From positions 1-64,000 of the forward strand of contig JAHQWG010000050.1 of the NCBI GenBank assembly GCA_029856045.1: a stretch of 64,000 bases of DNA, given 5' to 3'. Source of the DNA: Promethearchaeia archaeon (GTDB lineage Archaea > Asgardarchaeota > Lokiarchaeia > Sigyniarchaeales > SOKP01). Below the pieces are notes generated by a model, which saw only the letters and a program-made list of their open reading frames with translations, was not told where the DNA came from and ran no database searches. The translations under genes and the position numbers were made by a program. The first letter of the stretch is position 1. Every line of letters begins with the position of its first letter. Positions 2,275-8,949 of this stretch are shown in pieces.

Positions 2275-5028
2275 ATGGTAAAATCTAATAAAAAAATTTC
2301 AAAGTTAATAGTAATATGCATAATTGCGCTATTCATAAGTGGCATGAGCTTCATTCTTTTAATTATTCCTTCAGGCGGTCAAGTAGGAGATAAAAAAAAT
2401 CTCTTGGTAATCAGCAAAGGAAATGATACCCACTTTTTACAAAGTTTACAAATTGATCAGGACAACTTTGATATTTCAGTCGTTTCAGATTCAACCCCAA
2501 TTACATCGATCGAAACCTCGGTTGATATAGTTATTATTTTTGATGCATCTTTAGACATCTCAGAGATTTCACTAATAGGAGATTTTGTGGATAATGGCGG
2601 ATCATGCATAATCTTTATGGGGCAAAATTTACATAATGATGCTACACTCTTAGAAGATCTACAAATAATTACCGATATACAGTTTGAAAAGAATACCGAG
2701 TCAATGCTATTCGTCGTAGGAGATATTTCACATCCAATCAACCAAAATATTGATTGGAATTCCGCTCCTGATATGAATGTAGACAATATGACGATTATTC
2801 CAACTCAAGATTTTAACAATTCCATTGATAGACTAATTGATGTTTTTCCGGCTTCAAAAAATTTAGAAATCGAACAATCTCGCCTACCTATTCTGGTGGA
2901 AATGGCAAAAGGAAATGGTAATATATTATTATTTACCGGTTGGCTAGAGGAAGGAGCTAATATAGGCTTTCTACTTTGGCCTTATTTAAATTATTTATTA
3001 TATTCATTAGCATTAGAAAGTTTAAATGAGTCCTTTTTATCTTATCCTGATTGGCCTTATTCTCCAGTCCCTCACTTAACAGAACAGATTATATTATTAA
3101 TCGTAATTATTATATTAGCAATCTTAGCTGCTTCATTGTTTTTAATTGTTAAGAAAAAATCTGGAGCACGTATCGATCAAGCAACAATAGAAGTTATGAA
3201 ACGTCAAGCAGAAGAAGAGGAAAGAAAAGAGAAGGAAGAAGAAGCAGAACTTAAGAAGAAAATTGAGGCGGAAATTGATTTAAAAGATGATTGGGAAGTA
3301 ATTGGAATTCATAGACAATTGGGTGGATTTCTCTTTACACTCTTTATAGGATTGATTTTAGTGATTCCACAATTATTGATATCTAATTTCGTAATGCCAC
3401 AAATAATCCAACCTTATCCTCAAGCAGCAGGTTGGTATTACTATGCATATAATATATTTCAAGTCGCTTGGCTTCTCTTCGATTTTGGTACTTCATATGC
3501 TTTAGCAAAATATTTTGCTCAATATCGAGTAAAAAATCCCGAAAAAGCAATTCATTACATACAAATATTCGTCTATTGGCAATTATTTACTGGATTAATA
3601 CAGATTTCTATATTTGCTTTCATCGGTTCTATAATATTTCCGCAAACAAACATTGCACACATGAGTTGGGTGTTCATAACATTTTCTTTAGTTCAATACC
3701 CAGGTTTCTTTTTAGTATTTATGTATTCATTTCAAGGAATGCAAAAAGCAGATTTACATCTTATAACATACGTTGCTTGGGAAATTATCTGGCAACTTAT
3801 TGGCCAGATGATATTTTGCTACCTAGGGCGTTTGTGGGGTGCCGCGAATCCTATGTTTGGTGAAGCATTAGGAGCAGGTATAGGATATTCTATTGCAAGA
3901 TATTTCGATTACTGGGCTACATTTTTCTTATCTATGATATTGTTTAAAAGATTAGGATATTCCCCTAAAACTGTGTTTAGAATTGATTTCACAAAAGAAG
4001 AATTTAAAGAATCAATGAAATATGGTTCAAAATTAGCATTCGGAGAATCATTTGTCCAATTAGGCTGGTTTATCCAAATAGTAGTAACAAGTTTATTTAT
4101 TGCAAATTACTCGAACGAACTTGGATATTTTAATTTATGTTGGAATATTGGTTTGATTGTACAAATTATTTCCTTATATGGTCAATCGTTACTTGGAGCA
4201 TATAGCGAATCCTATGCGCATGATAAACCAACTTTGACAAAACTTTATATATATCAAGGCTTTAGGTGGGGCAATTATTTCGGTTATTTTATTATCTCGG
4301 TACTTTTAGCGACGGGTGCAAAATTTTTAGTTGGCGCTGCAGGAGTTGAATATGGAACACCAGCAGTAAAATTTTTAGTTCCTTTAATGATATTCCATGC
4401 ATTCGGTATTTATTCTTGGTTAGGTGATTGTGTTTTTCAAGGTACCGGAAAAACTGGTTTATTGGCTGTAACTTGGATAATAGAGCAGACTTCGAGGGCA
4501 CTATTGATTATAATTCTCGTTATTTGGCTGAAAGACATGACCGCAGTACTATTTGCGTATATTCCCGCAGTATTAACGAAAGATATACTATTATGGTTAA
4601 TTATCCGCTTTAAAATTACGAAATATAAAATATATCCATTTAAAACATTCATAACTCCCGCTATAGCAGCAATAATAAATTATATAGTCCTATTTTTTAT
4701 AGGTGAACTTCTCTGGACAATCGATTTAGGAGATAAAATCATAAATACAGCTATAATATTCTTAATTGGAATTTTTCTATTCATGTATTTCTACGCATTT
4801 ATAGAGGGAATTCTTGGAGGATATGATGATAACACTCTTCAAGAGTTTGAGAGAGCTGCAAATCTTGTTGAAGGACCGATTGGAGCACTCCCAAAAGCCT
4901 TATATAAAATGGCAAAACTTGGTAGCAAAATAAGTCCACTACATAACAAATTTAAAATAGATATCTATGAACAAGCCATGAAAGAAGCTTATGAATTAAC
5001 CCTAGAAAAAAAAGTTTTAAAAATTTAA
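2275..5028 (+). CDS. MOP-superfamily (Wzx/MurJ/MATE-like) flippase fused to an N-terminal extracytoplasmic domain
   Basis: N-terminal TM, about 230-aa soluble domain, TM, charged coiled coil, then 12-14 TM region (FDFGTSYALAKYFAQY, ELGYF). Confidence 0.65.
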   Translation: MVKSNKKISKLIVICIIALFISGMSFILLIIPSGGQVGDKKNLLVISKGNDTHFLQSLQIDQDNFDISVVSDSTPITSIETSVDIVIIFDASLDISEISLIGDFVDNGGSCIIFMGQNLHNDATLLEDLQIITDIQFEKNTESMLFVVGDISHPINQNIDWNSAPDMNVDNMTIIPTQDFNNSIDRLIDVFPASKNLEIEQSRLPILVEMAKGNGNILLFTGWLEEGANIGFLLWPYLNYLLYSLALESLNESFLSYPDWPYSPVPHLTEQIILLIVIIILAILAASLFLIVKKKSGARIDQATIEVMKRQAEEEERKEKEEEAELKKKIEAEIDLKDDWEVIGIHRQLGGFLFTLFIGLILVIPQLLISNFVMPQIIQPYPQAAGWYYYAYNIFQVAWLLFDFGTSYALAKYFAQYRVKNPEKAIHYIQIFVYWQLFTGLIQISIFAFIGSIIFPQTNIAHMSWVFITFSLVQYPGFFLVFMYSFQGMQKADLHLITYVAWEIIWQLIGQMIFCYLGRLWGAANPMFGEALGAGIGYSIARYFDYWATFFLSMILFKRLGYSPKTVFRIDFTKEEFKESMKYGSKLAFGESFVQLGWFIQIVVTSLFIANYSNELGYFNLCWNIGLIVQIISLYGQSLLGAYSESYAHDKPTLTKLYIYQGFRWGNYFGYFIISVLLATGAKFLVGAAGVEYGTPAVKFLVPLMIFHAFGIYSWLGDCVFQGTGKTGLLAVTWIIEQTSRALLIIILVIWLKDMTAVLFAYIPAVLTKDILLWLIIRFKITKYKIYPFKTFITPAIAAIINYIVLFFIGELLWTIDLGDKIINTAIIFLIGIFLFMYFYAFIEGILGGYDDNTLQEFERAANLVEGPIGALPKALYKMAKLGSKISPLHNKFKIDIYEQAMKEAYELTLEKKVLKI

Positions 5029-5187
5029 ACTTATTTTTTTTTTTCTCATTTTACAATCAACCTATACAGAAAAAGTAGTTTATTGGGTAAATTGAAATTA
5101 TTTTCTAATAAATAAGATAAATTAATTATTTTTCTCCAACTTATTAATATATTGAACACTTCAATCATTGATAATAAGTGAGGGTTT

Positions 5188-6000
5188 ATCGTAAGAATAA
5201 CTCTTTCCGTTTTGGAGATCGGTGGACAGGAAAGATTCAAGTTTTTTAAGAGTGATTTTTTTAAAGGTGCTTCAGTAATCGCTCTAATATTTGATTTAGC
5301 CCGCCCGGATACTTTCGATAGACTTGAAAAATATTATAATGAGATACGGGGAAAAGCTGGAAATATCCCAATTATACTCGTGGGAAATAAAAAAGATTTG
5401 GAAAAAGATCTTGGCATCTTAATAAGAAAGAAAAAGATCCTTGATGTTGTTCATAGGTATAGCTTACTGGAATATATAGAAACTTCAGCGTTATCAGGTT
5501 TAAATATTAAAAAGCTATTTGATAAGATGGCTTTATTAGCCTTAATAGATATACGCTCTCCCCCTAAATTGGGCCAAATTATTGATAAAGAAAATTTTAA
5601 ATTTAAAGTCGTTCTTGCAGGACCGGCAGCTGTTGGTAAAACTACCATTCTAAGAACTTTAGTTGATAAAGAATTTACCGAACAATATAAATTAACTGTA
5701 GGATTAGATACTACAACCCAAACATATGAAATACCTGATGAGGAAATTTCTCAAGAAGCGAAAGAATCAATCGAAAAAGCATGGAATTCATTAGATAAGA
5801 TAATTAAAAAACAGACAACCACTCAAATGATAGAGGCCACACAGACAGAAACAGTAATGGCCCAACATAATGACATTAATAACCCAAGTGAATCATCTCA
5901 AAACTGGCGCCTTAAACGAAAATATAACTTTTTGGGGCTTATTATCATATTAATTTGCATAATACTGACGATAATTATAATTTTTAATTCATTCACCTAA
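5188..6000 (+). CDS. Circularly permuted Rab/Ras-like small GTPase with C-terminal TM anchor
   Basis: Motif order EIGGQERF (G3), NKKD (G4), ETSAL (G5), GPAAVGKT (G1), LTVG (G2); hydrophobic C-tail. ORF track starts at TTG 5212, but the frame is open to 5182; likely start is ATC 5188 after GTGAGG. Confidence 0.8.
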   Translation: MVRITLSVLEIGGQERFKFFKSDFFKGASVIALIFDLARPDTFDRLEKYYNEIRGKAGNIPIILVGNKKDLEKDLGILIRKKKILDVVHRYSLLEYIETSALSGLNIKKLFDKMALLALIDIRSPPKLGQIIDKENFKFKVVLAGPAAVGKTTILRTLVDKEFTEQYKLTVGLDTTTQTYEIPDEEISQEAKESIEKAWNSLDKIIKKQTTTQMIEATQTETVMAQHNDINNPSESSQNWRLKRKYNFLGLIIILICIILTIIIIFNSFT

Positions 6001-6057: not shown

Positions 6058-7341
6058 TTATAACATCTTCCATAATTGACGATTTGCCATGGAAATGATG
6101 TATTGCTGTATTTGTCTCGTTCCTCCGACAATTTCTTGTATTCTTGAGATTCCTACGAGATCCCACATTAATGTATTATCACAGACACCAGCACCTCCCA
6201 TAAGATTCGCCATTTCATAACAACAACGTTCGGATAATCGAGATGCTTCCAATTTAAAATGGCTGGAGGAAGCAATCATTGCTTGGGAGATATTTCTTGG
6301 AATCTCACCCCCAAATTTTTCCATTTTTTTATCATATTCTTCGCAGAATTTTAATAATCCTATAGTTAAATTTGTTGTTCTTGCCCAATAATCGGCAAAG
6401 GTGAAACCAACTCCTTGGAATTTTAAGATTTCTTGGCTAAATTGCTTTCGCATGTTGATATAAATAAATGCGTGTGAAAGGGCGGTCCATGCTTGAGCAA
6501 CATTTCCTACTGCGATCCCAATTCTTTCTAGTATTAATCCTTCAAATAGGTGACCCCTACCTTTTCCAATGCCCCCTAAAACATATTCTGGGGGAACTCT
6601 TATATTAGTTAGGTGATTGTGGCCGATCCAAATTTTTGGAGTCCATGGAATAAATACTCTTTCACTCTTCCATCCGTCCCAACTTGTATTAATTAAGTAT
6701 TGGGTCATTTGATTACCTTCATTTGCTACTGCAGTACCGTATCCAACAACCCATTTAGCTTTGGGGGAGTTAGTGTTGAAAATTTTTTCACCGTTAACAA
6801 TTAAGCTGCCATCTTCTTGGGGTTCGGTAACAGTCAATTGATGTACAGCATCCGAACCTCTTTCGGGTTCTGTTATTAAAATTGCCCCACATTCTTTACC
6901 AGTTATTAGATCTCTTAGAGCATCCAACCGTTCTGGGATTCCTTCATGATGAGCTTTAATGGCATTTATTGCTAATATTGTAGCGCCCATAGCCATACAA
7001 AACTGGGTATCAAACTGATCAACTGAAAAAATTCTCATCATTTCAGCAACAGCACCATGTTCTTCATAATTAATATCGAGTTCATCCATTTTATAGGAAC
7101 GTGATACATATCCTTCTGCACCAAAATCGGGAATCCATTGATATAAATCTTCATCCATACTATGTTGGATGTTATTTTTTTTCTCATATCTCATGCAGAA
7201 TCTTTGTACCTTTCTTAAGAAATTAAATTGTTCGGGGCTTAAGATTGCCATTAAATTATTATTAAAAAAGGTGTACCGATTTTTTAGGTTCATTTTTTCC
7301 ATTATTTCATCATTTATTGCTTGGTCTTGATACATTGGCAT
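6058..7341 (-). CDS. Acyl-CoA dehydrogenase family protein (paralog 2)
   Basis: ITEPERGSD, NGEK.F.TN, R.QF, LMGGAG, IVGGT..IQ motifs. Confidence 0.9.
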   Translation of the reverse strand: MPMYQDQAINDEIMEKMNLKNRYTFFNNNLMAILSPEQFNFLRKVQRFCMRYEKKNNIQHSMDEDLYQWIPDFGAEGYVSRSYKMDELDINYEEHGAVAEMMRIFSVDQFDTQFCMAMGATILAINAIKAHHEGIPERLDALRDLITGKECGAILITEPERGSDAVHQLTVTEPQEDGSLIVNGEKIFNTNSPKAKWVVGYGTAVANEGNQMTQYLINTSWDGWKSERVFIPWTPKIWIGHNHLTNIRVPPEYVLGGIGKGRGHLFEGLILERIGIAVGNVAQAWTALSHAFIYINMRKQFSQEILKFQGVGFTFADYWARTTNLTIGLLKFCEEYDKKMEKFGGEIPRNISQAMIASSSHFKLEASRLSERCCYEMANLMGGAGVCDNTLMWDLVGISRIQEIVGGTRQIQQYIISMANRQLWKML

Positions 7342-7653: not shown

Positions 7654-8949
7654 TTATATCATCTTCCATAATTGACGTGTTGCCATGGAAATGATGTATT
7701 GTTGTATCTGGCGTGTCCCTCCGACAATCTCCTGTATTCTTGAAAGTCCCAAAAGATCCTGCATCATTGTATTATCATTGACTCCTGCACCTCCCATAAG
7801 ATTCGCCATTTCATAACAACAGCGTTCGGATAGCCTTGATGCTTCCAATTTAAGGTGACTGGCAGAAGCAACAATAGCTTGTGAAATATTTCTTGGTATT
7901 TCGCCGCTAAATTTCTCCATTTTTGCATCATATTCTTCACAAAATTTCAATAGTCCGAGGGTCAAGTTCGAGCACCTTGCCCAATAATCAGCAAAAGTAA
8001 AACCAACTCCTTGAAACTTTAAGACTTCTTGTTTAAATTGCTTTCTCATGTTAATGAAGAGAAATGCAAGTGAGAGTGCGCCCCATGCTTGGCCGATATT
8101 ACCCATTGCAATCATTATCCTTTCAGGAGTTAATCCATCAAAAAGATGATCTCTACCCGTACCTATTCCTCCTAAGACATATTCTGGAGGAACTCTTAAA
8201 TTTTCTAAGTGCTCATGGCCAATCCATATTTTAGGAACCCAAGGAATAAAAACTCTTTTGACATTAAATCCTTCCCAATTTGTGTTGATTAAGAACTGTG
8301 CCATTGTCCTTCCATTATCTTTTTCTGCGCATGCGTAGCCAACGACCCACTTTGATTTTGGAGCGTTACTATTGTAGACTTTTTCACCATTAAGAGTAAA
8401 ACTGCCATCTTCATTCTGCTTGCATTCAGTTAACATATGCACAGCATCAGAGCCTCTTTCGGGTTCTGTTATCAATATAGCGCCCGGAGATTCACCTGTG
8501 ACTAGTTCTTTGAGCGCTTTCAAACATTCTGGTCTTCCATTATGATGGGCTTTGATTGGATTTATTGCTAATATTGTAGCTCCTAAAGCCATATCGAATT
8601 GAGTATCAAACATATCGATGGCTATTGCTCTTAACATATCAACAGTTAATCCGTAATACTCATAATTAAGATCAATTTCTTCATATTTATAACCACGAGT
8701 TACTAATCCTGCTTTACCGAATTCAGGTATCCATTCATAAAAATCCTCATCTGGAGAATGTTGGATGTTATTTTTTTTTTCAAATCTCATGCAAAATTTT
8801 TGAACGGTTTTTAACCAATTAAATTGCTCTGGTTTTAAAATTGACATTAAATTGTTATTTAAAAAAGCATAACGATTTTTTAACGATAATTTTTCTAATA
8901 TTTCATCATTTATTGCCTTGTCTTGATATCTTACCATTTTTATTATCAC
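7654..8949 (-). CDS. Acyl-CoA dehydrogenase family protein (paralog 1)
   Basis: Same motifs as 6058-7341 and colinear over the whole length; true start probably MVRYQD. Confidence 0.9.
   Translation of the reverse strand: MIIKMVRYQDKAINDEILEKLSLKNRYAFLNNNLMSILKPEQFNWLKTVQKFCMRFEKKNNIQHSPDEDFYEWIPEFGKAGLVTRGYKYEEIDLNYEYYGLTVDMLRAIAIDMFDTQFDMALGATILAINPIKAHHNGRPECLKALKELVTGESPGAILITEPERGSDAVHMLTECKQNEDGSFTLNGEKVYNSNAPKSKWVVGYACAEKDNGRTMAQFLINTNWEGFNVKRVFIPWVPKIWIGHEHLENLRVPPEYVLGGIGTGRDHLFDGLTPERIMIAMGNIGQAWGALSLAFLFINMRKQFKQEVLKFQGVGFTFADYWARCSNLTLGLLKFCEEYDAKMEKFSGEIPRNISQAIVASASHLKLEASRLSERCCYEMANLMGGAGVNDNTMMQDLLGLSRIQEIVGGTRQIQQYIISMATRQLWKMI

Follow-up and report, generated by a model that had tools for sequence, protein, structure and literature searches.

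A circularly permuted Rab-like GTPase with a predicted C-terminal membrane anchor in one order of Lokiarchaeia

The window analysed here, a 64,000-nt stretch of DNA from a Promethearchaeia archaeon (assembly GCA_029856045.1, contig JAHQWG010000050.1, positions 1 to 64,000), carries on its plus strand a reading frame that starts directly after the TGA at 5179-5181 and extends from 5182 to the TAA at 5998-6000. Read from the ATC at 5188, this frame encodes a protein in which each of the five G motifs of a small GTPase occurs once, starting with G3 (EIGGQ) and continuing with G4 (NKKD), G5 (TSAL), G1 (GPAAVGKT) and the G2 Thr of KLTVGLD (Table 1). The span originally proposed for the gene, 5188-6000, holds for the open frame and its stop codon, but its first codon is not a canonical start. 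Two acyl-CoA-dehydrogenase-like (ACAD) genes follow on the minus strand (6058-7341 and 7654-8949), and the gene upstream encodes a 917-aa membrane protein with a Polysacc_synt domain.

Table 1. Positions of the permuted GTPase gene, its elements and its start region in the window
Feature	Position	Strand	Remarks
CDS of permuted, TM-anchored Rab-like GTPase	5188..6000	+	270 aa, read from ATC
SD-like purine motif GTGAGGG	5178..5184	+	holds in-frame TGA 5179-5181 and out-of-frame GTG 5178
ATC, putative near-cognate start	5188..5190	+	aligns with family Met ATG of M-V-x-I-T-L-S
Strand β3, N-terminus of the permuted domain	5191..5217	+	AF2 strand residues 2-10; Rab11 match from residue 59
TTG, start chosen by gene callers	5212..5214	+	262-aa product MEIGGQ...; probably not the real start
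G3 / switch II, EIGGQ	5215..5229	+	Glu for the usual Asp; catalytic-type Gln retained
G4, NKKD	5386..5397	+	N67, K68, D70 invariant in family alignment
G5, TSAL	5482..5493	+	T99, S100 invariant in family alignment
New connector, helix 5 to strand β1	5548..5598	+	conserved P-[RK]-L-G-[EQ]-I..D..[HN]-F-[RK]-F-K
G1 P-loop, GPAAVGKT	5620..5643	+	G145, G150, K151 invariant; matches within Rab11 residues 5-58
G2 / switch I Thr (KLTVGLD)	5695..5697	+	T170, G172, D174 invariant in family alignment
Long charged stalk helix after β2	5752..5874	+	AF2 helix residues 189-229
C-terminal TM helix, tail-anchor type	5929..5985	+	basic RLKRK before, 4 residues after

The Pfam Ras profile (PF00071) matches the protein with an E-value of 6.4e-31 (107.6 bits; cut-off 21.6). 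This match is split in two: residues 5-117 correspond to profile positions 47-157, and the P-loop part lies at about residues 140-190. The TIGR00231 small_GTP profile gives 57.2 bits against a cut-off of 42.5, whereas the matches to RsgA_GTPase and MMR_HSR1 stay below their Pfam cut-offs and cover the P-loop only. The protein therefore belongs to the Ras superfamily by profile and by its five G motifs, with G3 reading ExxGQ in the window's genus and DxxGQ in all other members of the family, and the motifs follow each other as G3-G4-G5-G1-G2 instead of the canonical linear G1-G2-G3-G4-G5. When a family profile built from 52 members was searched against PDB sequences, the best 60 matches were all Rab/Ypt/Sec4 proteins, including a Thorarchaeota Rab, and every one of them matched in two stretches. 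For Rab11 (3bfk), residues 5-58 correspond to profile positions 134-187 and residues 59-165 to positions 6-114. Since these two pieces abut between Rab11 residues 58 and 59, the break falls exactly in the β2/β3 turn, with neither duplication nor loss. The same relation is found inside the genome that holds the window (3.34 Mb in 55 contigs, 100% complete), which encodes a single permuted copy and several dozen canonical small-GTPase loci: the canonical paralogues match the query as two adjoining pieces in reversed order, as at C47:16134-16292 (query residues 137-189), which lies directly N-terminal to C47:15795-16130 (query residues 7-118). The closest paralogue is 41-42% identical in both halves. 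Overall, these data strongly support that the Rab-like G domain is truly circularly permuted, in a protein with a TM helix of the tail-anchor type, and they bear out the motif order and the single occurrence of each element that had been read from the letters of the window alone.

The AF2 model computed from the full-length alignment (mean pLDDT 76, pTM 0.65) follows the order β3, helix 2, β4, helix 3, β5, helix 4, β6, helix 5, a short strand and β1, then helix 1, a disordered switch I, β2, a 40-residue helix and the TM helix. With Foldseek, ~118 of its residues align to RhoA, Rac and Rab at an rmsd of ~2.2 Å. An exhaustive VIA-align search placed Rho and Rab structures, which are tied by fold alone, on model residues 1-120 (Z 10-11, rmsd 1.9-2.2, 118-125 residues), and placed the permuted GTPases YqeH (3h2y), YlqF (1puj), the pre-60S Lsg1 type and YjeQ/RsgA sequentially on model residues 14-181 (Z 9.3-10.3, 118-144 residues, rmsd 2.8-4.7). 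Because the YlqF, YqeH and RsgA alignments cross the junction between helix 5 and β1, the G domain is closed in the full-length model, as the original prediction had anticipated. Residues 1-188 modelled by themselves gave a poor result (pLDDT 53, pTM 0.46), so that the case for closure is made by one full-length model together with sequence homology.

Several residues of the new connector (R127, L128, G129, H136, F137, R138, F139 and K140) are invariant or nearly so in the family alignment. A conserved I-P-D-E-E motif, with P188 and E190 nearly invariant in the same alignment, precedes the stalk helix, and a polar spacer separates this charged helix from the hydrophobic C-terminal one. The latter, modelled by AF2 as a helix over residues 239-269 with a pLDDT of 93-96, reaches a Kyte-Doolittle value of 3.5 over 19 residues at the C-terminus, in agreement with the TM segment predicted to follow a polar linker. 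These residues, 248-266 of 270, are the sole hydrophobic segment of the protein, which has no N-terminal signal or TM. The C-terminus reads ...IIIFNSFT and lacks a terminal Cys or prenylation motif (CC, CXC or CAAX). By the predicted position of the TM helix and its basic flank, the protein would count as a tail-anchored membrane protein, and the helix would be expected to insert into the membrane. A gene of the ArsA/Get3 family is present in the genome, but this family is also found in 14 of 14 control genomes.

We found the permuted protein to be a member of a conserved family. A protein search returned 461 matches, hundreds of which are ~50-56% identical over 70-98% of the query and 207-284 aa long, and the homologues that were read all share the permuted order, starting at β3 with M-[KV]-x-[IV]-T-L-S-L-W-D-x-[GA]-G-Q. 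At the DNA level, none of 59 homologous loci carries an extra N-terminal G1/G2 or a C-terminal G3-G5, and a stop or start codon lies directly 5' of β3 in all 59. An in-frame 'IYCxLG...' extension on the 5' side of some homologues proved to be the 3' end of the neighbouring methyltransferase gene read in another frame. A screen of 400 genomes of the phylum with the family profile (E <= 1e-45) detected the family in 67, in essentially one copy each, with two fragments on separate contigs in one genome. It is present in 63 of 134 genomes of the window's GTDB family and in 3 of 14 genomes of a second family (f3) of the same order, and in 0 of ~250 sampled genomes elsewhere in the phylum. The family is thus restricted to one GTDB order and is not general across Asgard archaea, so that the Asgard permuted, TM-anchored GTPase first proposed keeps its permutation and its anchor but applies to a narrower group. 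Some of the MAGs concerned are titled Thor-, Hod-, Hermod- or Odinarchaeota at NCBI, and these labels are doubtful because on the tree the sequences hardly differ from those labelled 'Promethearchaeota'.

The three f3 matches score lower, and the third ends at a contig end. In the two f3 frames that were read fully, which encode proteins of 439 and 707 aa, the permuted domain lies at the N-terminus and is followed by a long linker rich in Pro, Glu and Lys, a small conserved domain and TM helices at the C-terminus. In the tree rooted with these f3 relatives, the first lineage to split off within the main family is the window clade, made up of the window's genus and loci L006 and L007 (SH-aLRT 95); TM-bearing forms are basal, with TM-less forms of 204-224 aa nested inside, and the unrooted tree agrees, although all family trees contain long branches and have to be read with care. 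Given the basal position of the TM-bearing forms, the membrane anchor is most likely ancestral to the family and was lost later in the TM-less forms. A full-text literature search, covering journals without subscription, returned no description of an archaeal permuted Ras-like GTPase, and neither a 2026 structural-clustering preprint nor a 2026 Microsporidia paper mentions one.

The region where translation of the window gene begins is unusual. No ATG, GTG or TTG occurs in frame between the TGA at 5179 and the TTG at 5212. This TTG is not conserved, being TTA in L006 (71% identity) and TTT in L007 (56% identity), and a start there would remove strand β3; in L006 and L007 themselves, the gene callers' starts lie far 3', inside G4 or helix 3. 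At the position of the family Met, ATC is also found in L006, L007 and L096, and ATA in L033/L095, so that five lineages have ATC or ATA at this position without a canonical in-frame start upstream. The ATA of L095 is the start in the NCBI annotation. The remaining members have ATG, TTG or GTG at the Met position or at the next codon. The sequence AAGTGAG, 6 nt 5' of the ATC, is conserved in the window's genus, L006 and L007, and other members carry GAGG, GGAGG or GGTG 6-13 nt before their start; the GTGAGGG of the window may well play the role of a Shine-Dalgarno (SD) sequence.

Over the first 60 codons, dN/dS is 0.07-0.14 (0.06-0.39 over codons 61-125). For this first segment, we obtained 0.08 between the window and L006 and 0.07 between the window and L007, both with a saturated dS (> 1), and 0.08-0.14 among close relatives. 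Such strong purifying selection on codons that lie, in L006 and L007, upstream of any canonical start indicates that the region is translated. SD-led initiation at the near-cognate ATC 5188 is the more probable mode. A +1 shift from the out-of-frame GTG 5178 is unlikely and at best a minor option: L006, L007 and the window's genus share the offset of this GTG, yet no slippery motif is present, conservation does not extend to the intervening codons and the alternative frame ends at varying positions; in L096 the GTG is in frame, and L033 has an out-of-frame ATG at a different distance. Initiation at TTG 5212, which would apply to the window's genus only, is about as unlikely, and some other mode of initiation is slightly less likely still.

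The surroundings of the gene were compared by clustering the ORFs of 57 loci. The usual same-strand cluster consists of genes for a Trx-like protein (16 loci), a ~700-aa protein (40 loci) and a SAM-dependent methyltransferase (39 loci), followed by the permuted GTPase, which is the final gene of the cluster in most relatives. The ~700-aa protein has a C-terminal coiled coil and no significant Pfam match. The 3' side of the GTPase gene is occupied by an HD-domain gene in 25 loci and by one or two ACAD-like genes in 52, mostly in convergent orientation. The GTPase ATG follows the methyltransferase stop codon at a distance of 2 nt in L039, where a GGAGG is located within the methyltransferase 3' end; this arrangement suggests translational coupling of the two genes. 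The window clade retains only the ACAD neighbours. A homologue of the ~700-aa protein (69% identity) is encoded on another contig of the window genome in an unrelated context, and the best methyltransferase match there is only 40% identical. The window lineage has lost the usual operon partners.

Three conserved positions have changed in the same lineage. The G3 Asp (D10, at least 90% conserved in the family) is Glu in the window's genus only; the replacement noted originally is real, and L006 and L007 keep Asp. In the window clade, Leu or Phe replaces the Trp that stands before the G3 Asp (WD motif, conserved to at least 90%), and Thr, Ser or Gln replaces the interswitch Phe/Leu of G-L-D-[FL], Thr being the residue of the window's genus. 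In Rab proteins, the equivalents of this Phe and this Trp pack on the β2/β3 hairpin and are part of the effector-binding hydrophobic triad. Their replacement coincides with the loss of the operon partners and with the long stem branch of the window clade (0.63 in the midpoint-rooted tree, 0.32 in the f3-rooted tree, both to be read with the caution given above). Together with the missing canonical start between TGA 5179 and TTG 5212, and with a ~700-aa gene that survives only elsewhere in the genome, these D-to-E, W-to-L and F-to-T exchanges, at sites that are either nearly invariant or hydrophobic and conserved, could be taken to mean that the protein is degenerating in this lineage, being weakly translated, made without β3 or no longer cycling GTP. 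We consider this quite unlikely: L006, L007 and every genome of the window's genus keep the frame intact, no part of the neighbourhood is better conserved than the CDS, the low dN/dS of its first 60 codons, at saturated dS, speaks for translation, and G1, G2, G4, G5 and the catalytic-type Gln are all in place. With the frame and the other motifs intact and dN/dS low, the changes suggest a shifted effector interface rather than decay. The Glu in G3, the Leu for Trp and the Thr for the interswitch Phe/Leu may nevertheless make the switch of the window's genus behave atypically.

The break point is shared with one described group. The chain of the eukaryotic cpRAS domain of CPRas proteins is likewise opened between strands 2 and 3, which gives the order G3-G4-G5-G1-G2 (Elias and Novotny 2008, Biol Direct 3:21, PMC2430557), whereas in YlqF and RsgA the order is G4-G5-G1-G2-G3 with the break after β3 (PMC2430557); both statements of the original prediction on this background are correct. 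It was once argued that a G domain permuted to begin with G3 could not fold, and so far this arrangement has been documented only for the rare cpRAS (PMC2430557), a typical RAS-family domain with 'TIE' in G2, found inside large VWA or COG2373-type proteins of scattered eukaryotes (PMC2430557). The archaeal family has in common with cpRAS the motif order, the strand 2/3 break, the joining of helix 5 to strand 1 and a Ras-superfamily G domain. By that published description, cpRAS is set apart from the archaeal proteins, which have a Rab-type G2 (T-V-G-L-D) in place of 'TIE', stand alone at 210-280 aa without being embedded in a large protein, carry a TM anchor or a basic C-terminal helix and occur in one order of Lokiarchaeia.

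Canonical Rab proteins (PF00071; Rab11 3bfk, Rab7 and the Thorarchaeota Rab 7ezb) provide the best sequence and fold matches and share with the family the five G motifs, the Rab-type switch I and interswitch and a WDTAGQERF-like G3 context. They differ from the window protein in that the halves of the domain are swapped in the latter, no prenylation Cys is present at its C-terminus and its TM anchor leaves from β2, not from helix 5. YlqF, YqeH and RsgA (YRG/YawG) are, like the window protein, permuted P-loop GTPases, and align with it across the helix 5-β1 junction, but they belong to the TRAFAC ribosome-assembly lineage, not to the Ras superfamily, are 10-21% identical to it and begin with G4 where it begins with G3.

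The common motif order and break, and the position of Asgard archaea as the closest relatives of eukaryotes, might point to a single permutation event behind cpRAS and the archaeal family, passed on by vertical descent from Asgard archaea or by transfer. This is very unlikely in view of the contrast between a Ras-type 'TIE' domain in VWA/COG2373-type proteins and a small stand-alone Rab-type TM protein, of the lack of any cpRAS among the longer matches and of a distribution limited to two GTDB families of one order, with none in the ~250 genomes sampled elsewhere in the phylum, which argues for a late origin of the archaeal family. An independent origin of the archaeal permutation, Rab-type and stand-alone where cpRAS is Ras-type and part of large proteins, is therefore likely, though not proven, and the archaeal permuted, TM-anchored family apparently represents a separate and unpublished case.

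The DNA upstream of β3 was examined for remnants of other elements. Each of the three frames of the interval 5029-5211 is interrupted by stops, and none encodes a P-loop; the 'KVV' string at about 5071-5090, originally considered as a possible decayed N-terminus, is a frame-2 fragment bounded by stops. That the protein is a non-functional accident left by a decayed tandem of two GTPases, with G3-G5 from the first and G1-G2 from the second, can hardly be correct: adjacent canonical GTPase genes do exist in the window genome (C20:768-2025), rotifer tandem arrays mimic the permuted order in searches and the 'KVV' string lies close by, but the 153-nt upstream spacer has stops in all three frames without a P-loop, no examined member has the additional N-terminal G1/G2 that such a remnant implies, the 59 loci being free of it and of a C-terminal G3-G5, the Rab11 junction is exact, and dN/dS is 0.07-0.39. 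Consistently, a search limited to longer proteins returned no fused form of the permuted family, its top matches being rotifer tandem Ras-like arrays followed by canonical Asgard GTPases. The family may well have arisen through a tandem fusion that was later trimmed, but that would describe its history and not its present state. A conserved RNA element in the spacer was also considered, as the region is 97% conserved in five close relatives; with more relatives, the conservation does not exceed that of the CDS and Rfam gives no match in the spacer, so the idea was dropped. A minus-strand ORF at 5046-5240 was discarded as well, its frame not being conserved in L006.

In the mechanism that we propose for the permuted Rab-like GTPase, the chain would run from β3/G3 through G4, G5 and helix 5 into a connector of ~15 residues, and on through β1/G1, helix 1 and G2 to β2, and these segments together would form one ordinary closed G domain on the cytoplasmic side. 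Beyond β2, the chain would pass the conserved acidic motif and a ~40-residue charged helix, and after a polar spacer its last 25 residues would hold the single TM helix, giving a tail-anchor topology with a cytosolic basic flank, in which a protein anchor replaces the prenyl group. As all nucleotide-binding motifs are present, GTP binding, GTP hydrolysis and the recruitment of effectors at the membrane are the most likely activities. In most genomes, the GTPase would presumably act with the products of the upstream cluster, and in the window lineage it is probably initiated at the near-cognate ATC behind the SD-like motif. Since the tether exits at the interswitch strand β2 and not at helix 5, the nucleotide state could, speculatively, couple directly to the stalk. 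A fuller scenario, in which a second independent invention of the G3-first order was selected for shifting the tether from helix 5 to β2, with mechanical transmission from the switch to the TM, and in which basal lineages including that of the window depend on obligatory AUC/AUA starts, is doubtful as a whole. If it were true, mechanical coupling through the stalk would be a mode of membrane coupling unknown for any Ras-superfamily protein.

A conserved archaeal family with cpRAS-like topology would show that the G3-first break point is readily tolerated, and its stand-alone, Rab-type, TM-anchored members offer a small, tractable protein for testing this tolerance. The lineage-wide missing canonical start, together with strong purifying selection on the codons that follow, makes the window gene a clean candidate for an Asgard archaeal gene translated from a near-cognate start. 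Among the many small GTPases of Lokiarchaeia, the family is an unusual addition, one that would be fixed at the membrane by protein and not by lipid, and, being tied to a specific gene cluster in most genomes, it bears on membrane-associated GTPase signalling in Asgard archaea.

Upstream of the permuted GTPase gene, most genomes carry a conserved cluster encoding a Trx-like protein, a ~700-aa protein and a SAM methyltransferase (loci L013-L066 of the family homologues; examples in the table). The ~700-aa protein ends in a coiled-coil tail and has no Pfam family, and only 2 nt separate the methyltransferase stop codon from the ATG of the permuted GTPase. On the 3' side, these loci continue with an HD-domain gene and acyl-CoA-dehydrogenase (ACAD)-like genes. 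An ACAD-like gene adjoins the permuted GTPase in 52 of the 57 loci, mostly in convergent orientation. In the lineage of the window the upstream part of the cluster is lost, and the ACAD-like gene, present there as tandem paralogues, is the sole neighbor retained. The window also encodes a 917-aa membrane protein with an extra N-terminal domain and a flippase-like Polysacc_synt domain; at the equivalent position of L006, from the same clade, all that survives of it is a ~67-aa remnant of its C-terminal part.

Coordinates of features in the window and at related loci
Feature	Locus	Positions	Strand
Upstream cluster, example	L039	228-1726	
Upstream cluster, example	L014	2-2131	
ACAD-like paralogue, 427 aa	window	6058-7341	minus
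ACAD-like paralogue, 431 aa	window	7654-8949	minus
917-aa membrane protein	window	2275-5028	plus
Remnant of the membrane protein	L006	2541-2744	
GTPase start region	window	5178-5214	
GTPase start region	L006	2799-2835	
GTPase start region	L007	1192-1228	
GTPase start region	L033	2985-3012	
GTPase start region	L096	301-321	
Permuted G domain protein, sister GTDB family	L099	64-2187	
Permuted G domain protein, sister GTDB family	L100	1012-2331	
Canonical GTPase gene pair	C20 (own genome)	768-2025	

In the distant relatives from the sister GTDB family (L099, L100), the permuted G domain is N-terminal in proteins of 439-707 aa, which also contain a long low-complexity linker rich in Pro, Glu and Lys, a small conserved domain that includes Cys, and TM helices at the C-terminus. 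The linker of L099 contains PSGPPGA repeats. The GTDB-based survey places the family in a single order only. MAGs titled Hod-, Thor-, Hermod- or Odinarchaeota at NCBI (L014, L019, L020, L026, L048, L050, L055, L058, L059 and L062) encode permuted GTPases almost identical to the "Promethearchaeota" ones, and the phylum labels of this MAG series look unreliable.

Contig C20 of the window's own genome carries two canonical small-GTPase genes arranged head to tail with a gap of ~110 nt; the segment between them that starts with the first gene's G3 and runs through the second gene's G2 shows the permuted motif order, illustrating a possible starting point for a fusion-and-trimming route to permutation. 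Animal proteins with tandem arrays of Ras-like domains (P0122-P0131, from Rotaria, Solemya and Macrostomum; 519-1667 aa) obtain very high scores with the permuted profile. In these, the end of one repeat and the start of the next mimic the permuted order, a trap when searching for permuted GTPases.

In the basal lineages (window, L006, L007, L033 and L096), the family's Met position is ATC or ATA, and a canonical in-frame start codon is lacking. Despite this, the N-terminal codons are under strong purifying selection, and the basal lineages of the family are a candidate case of near-cognate initiation in Lokiarchaeia.
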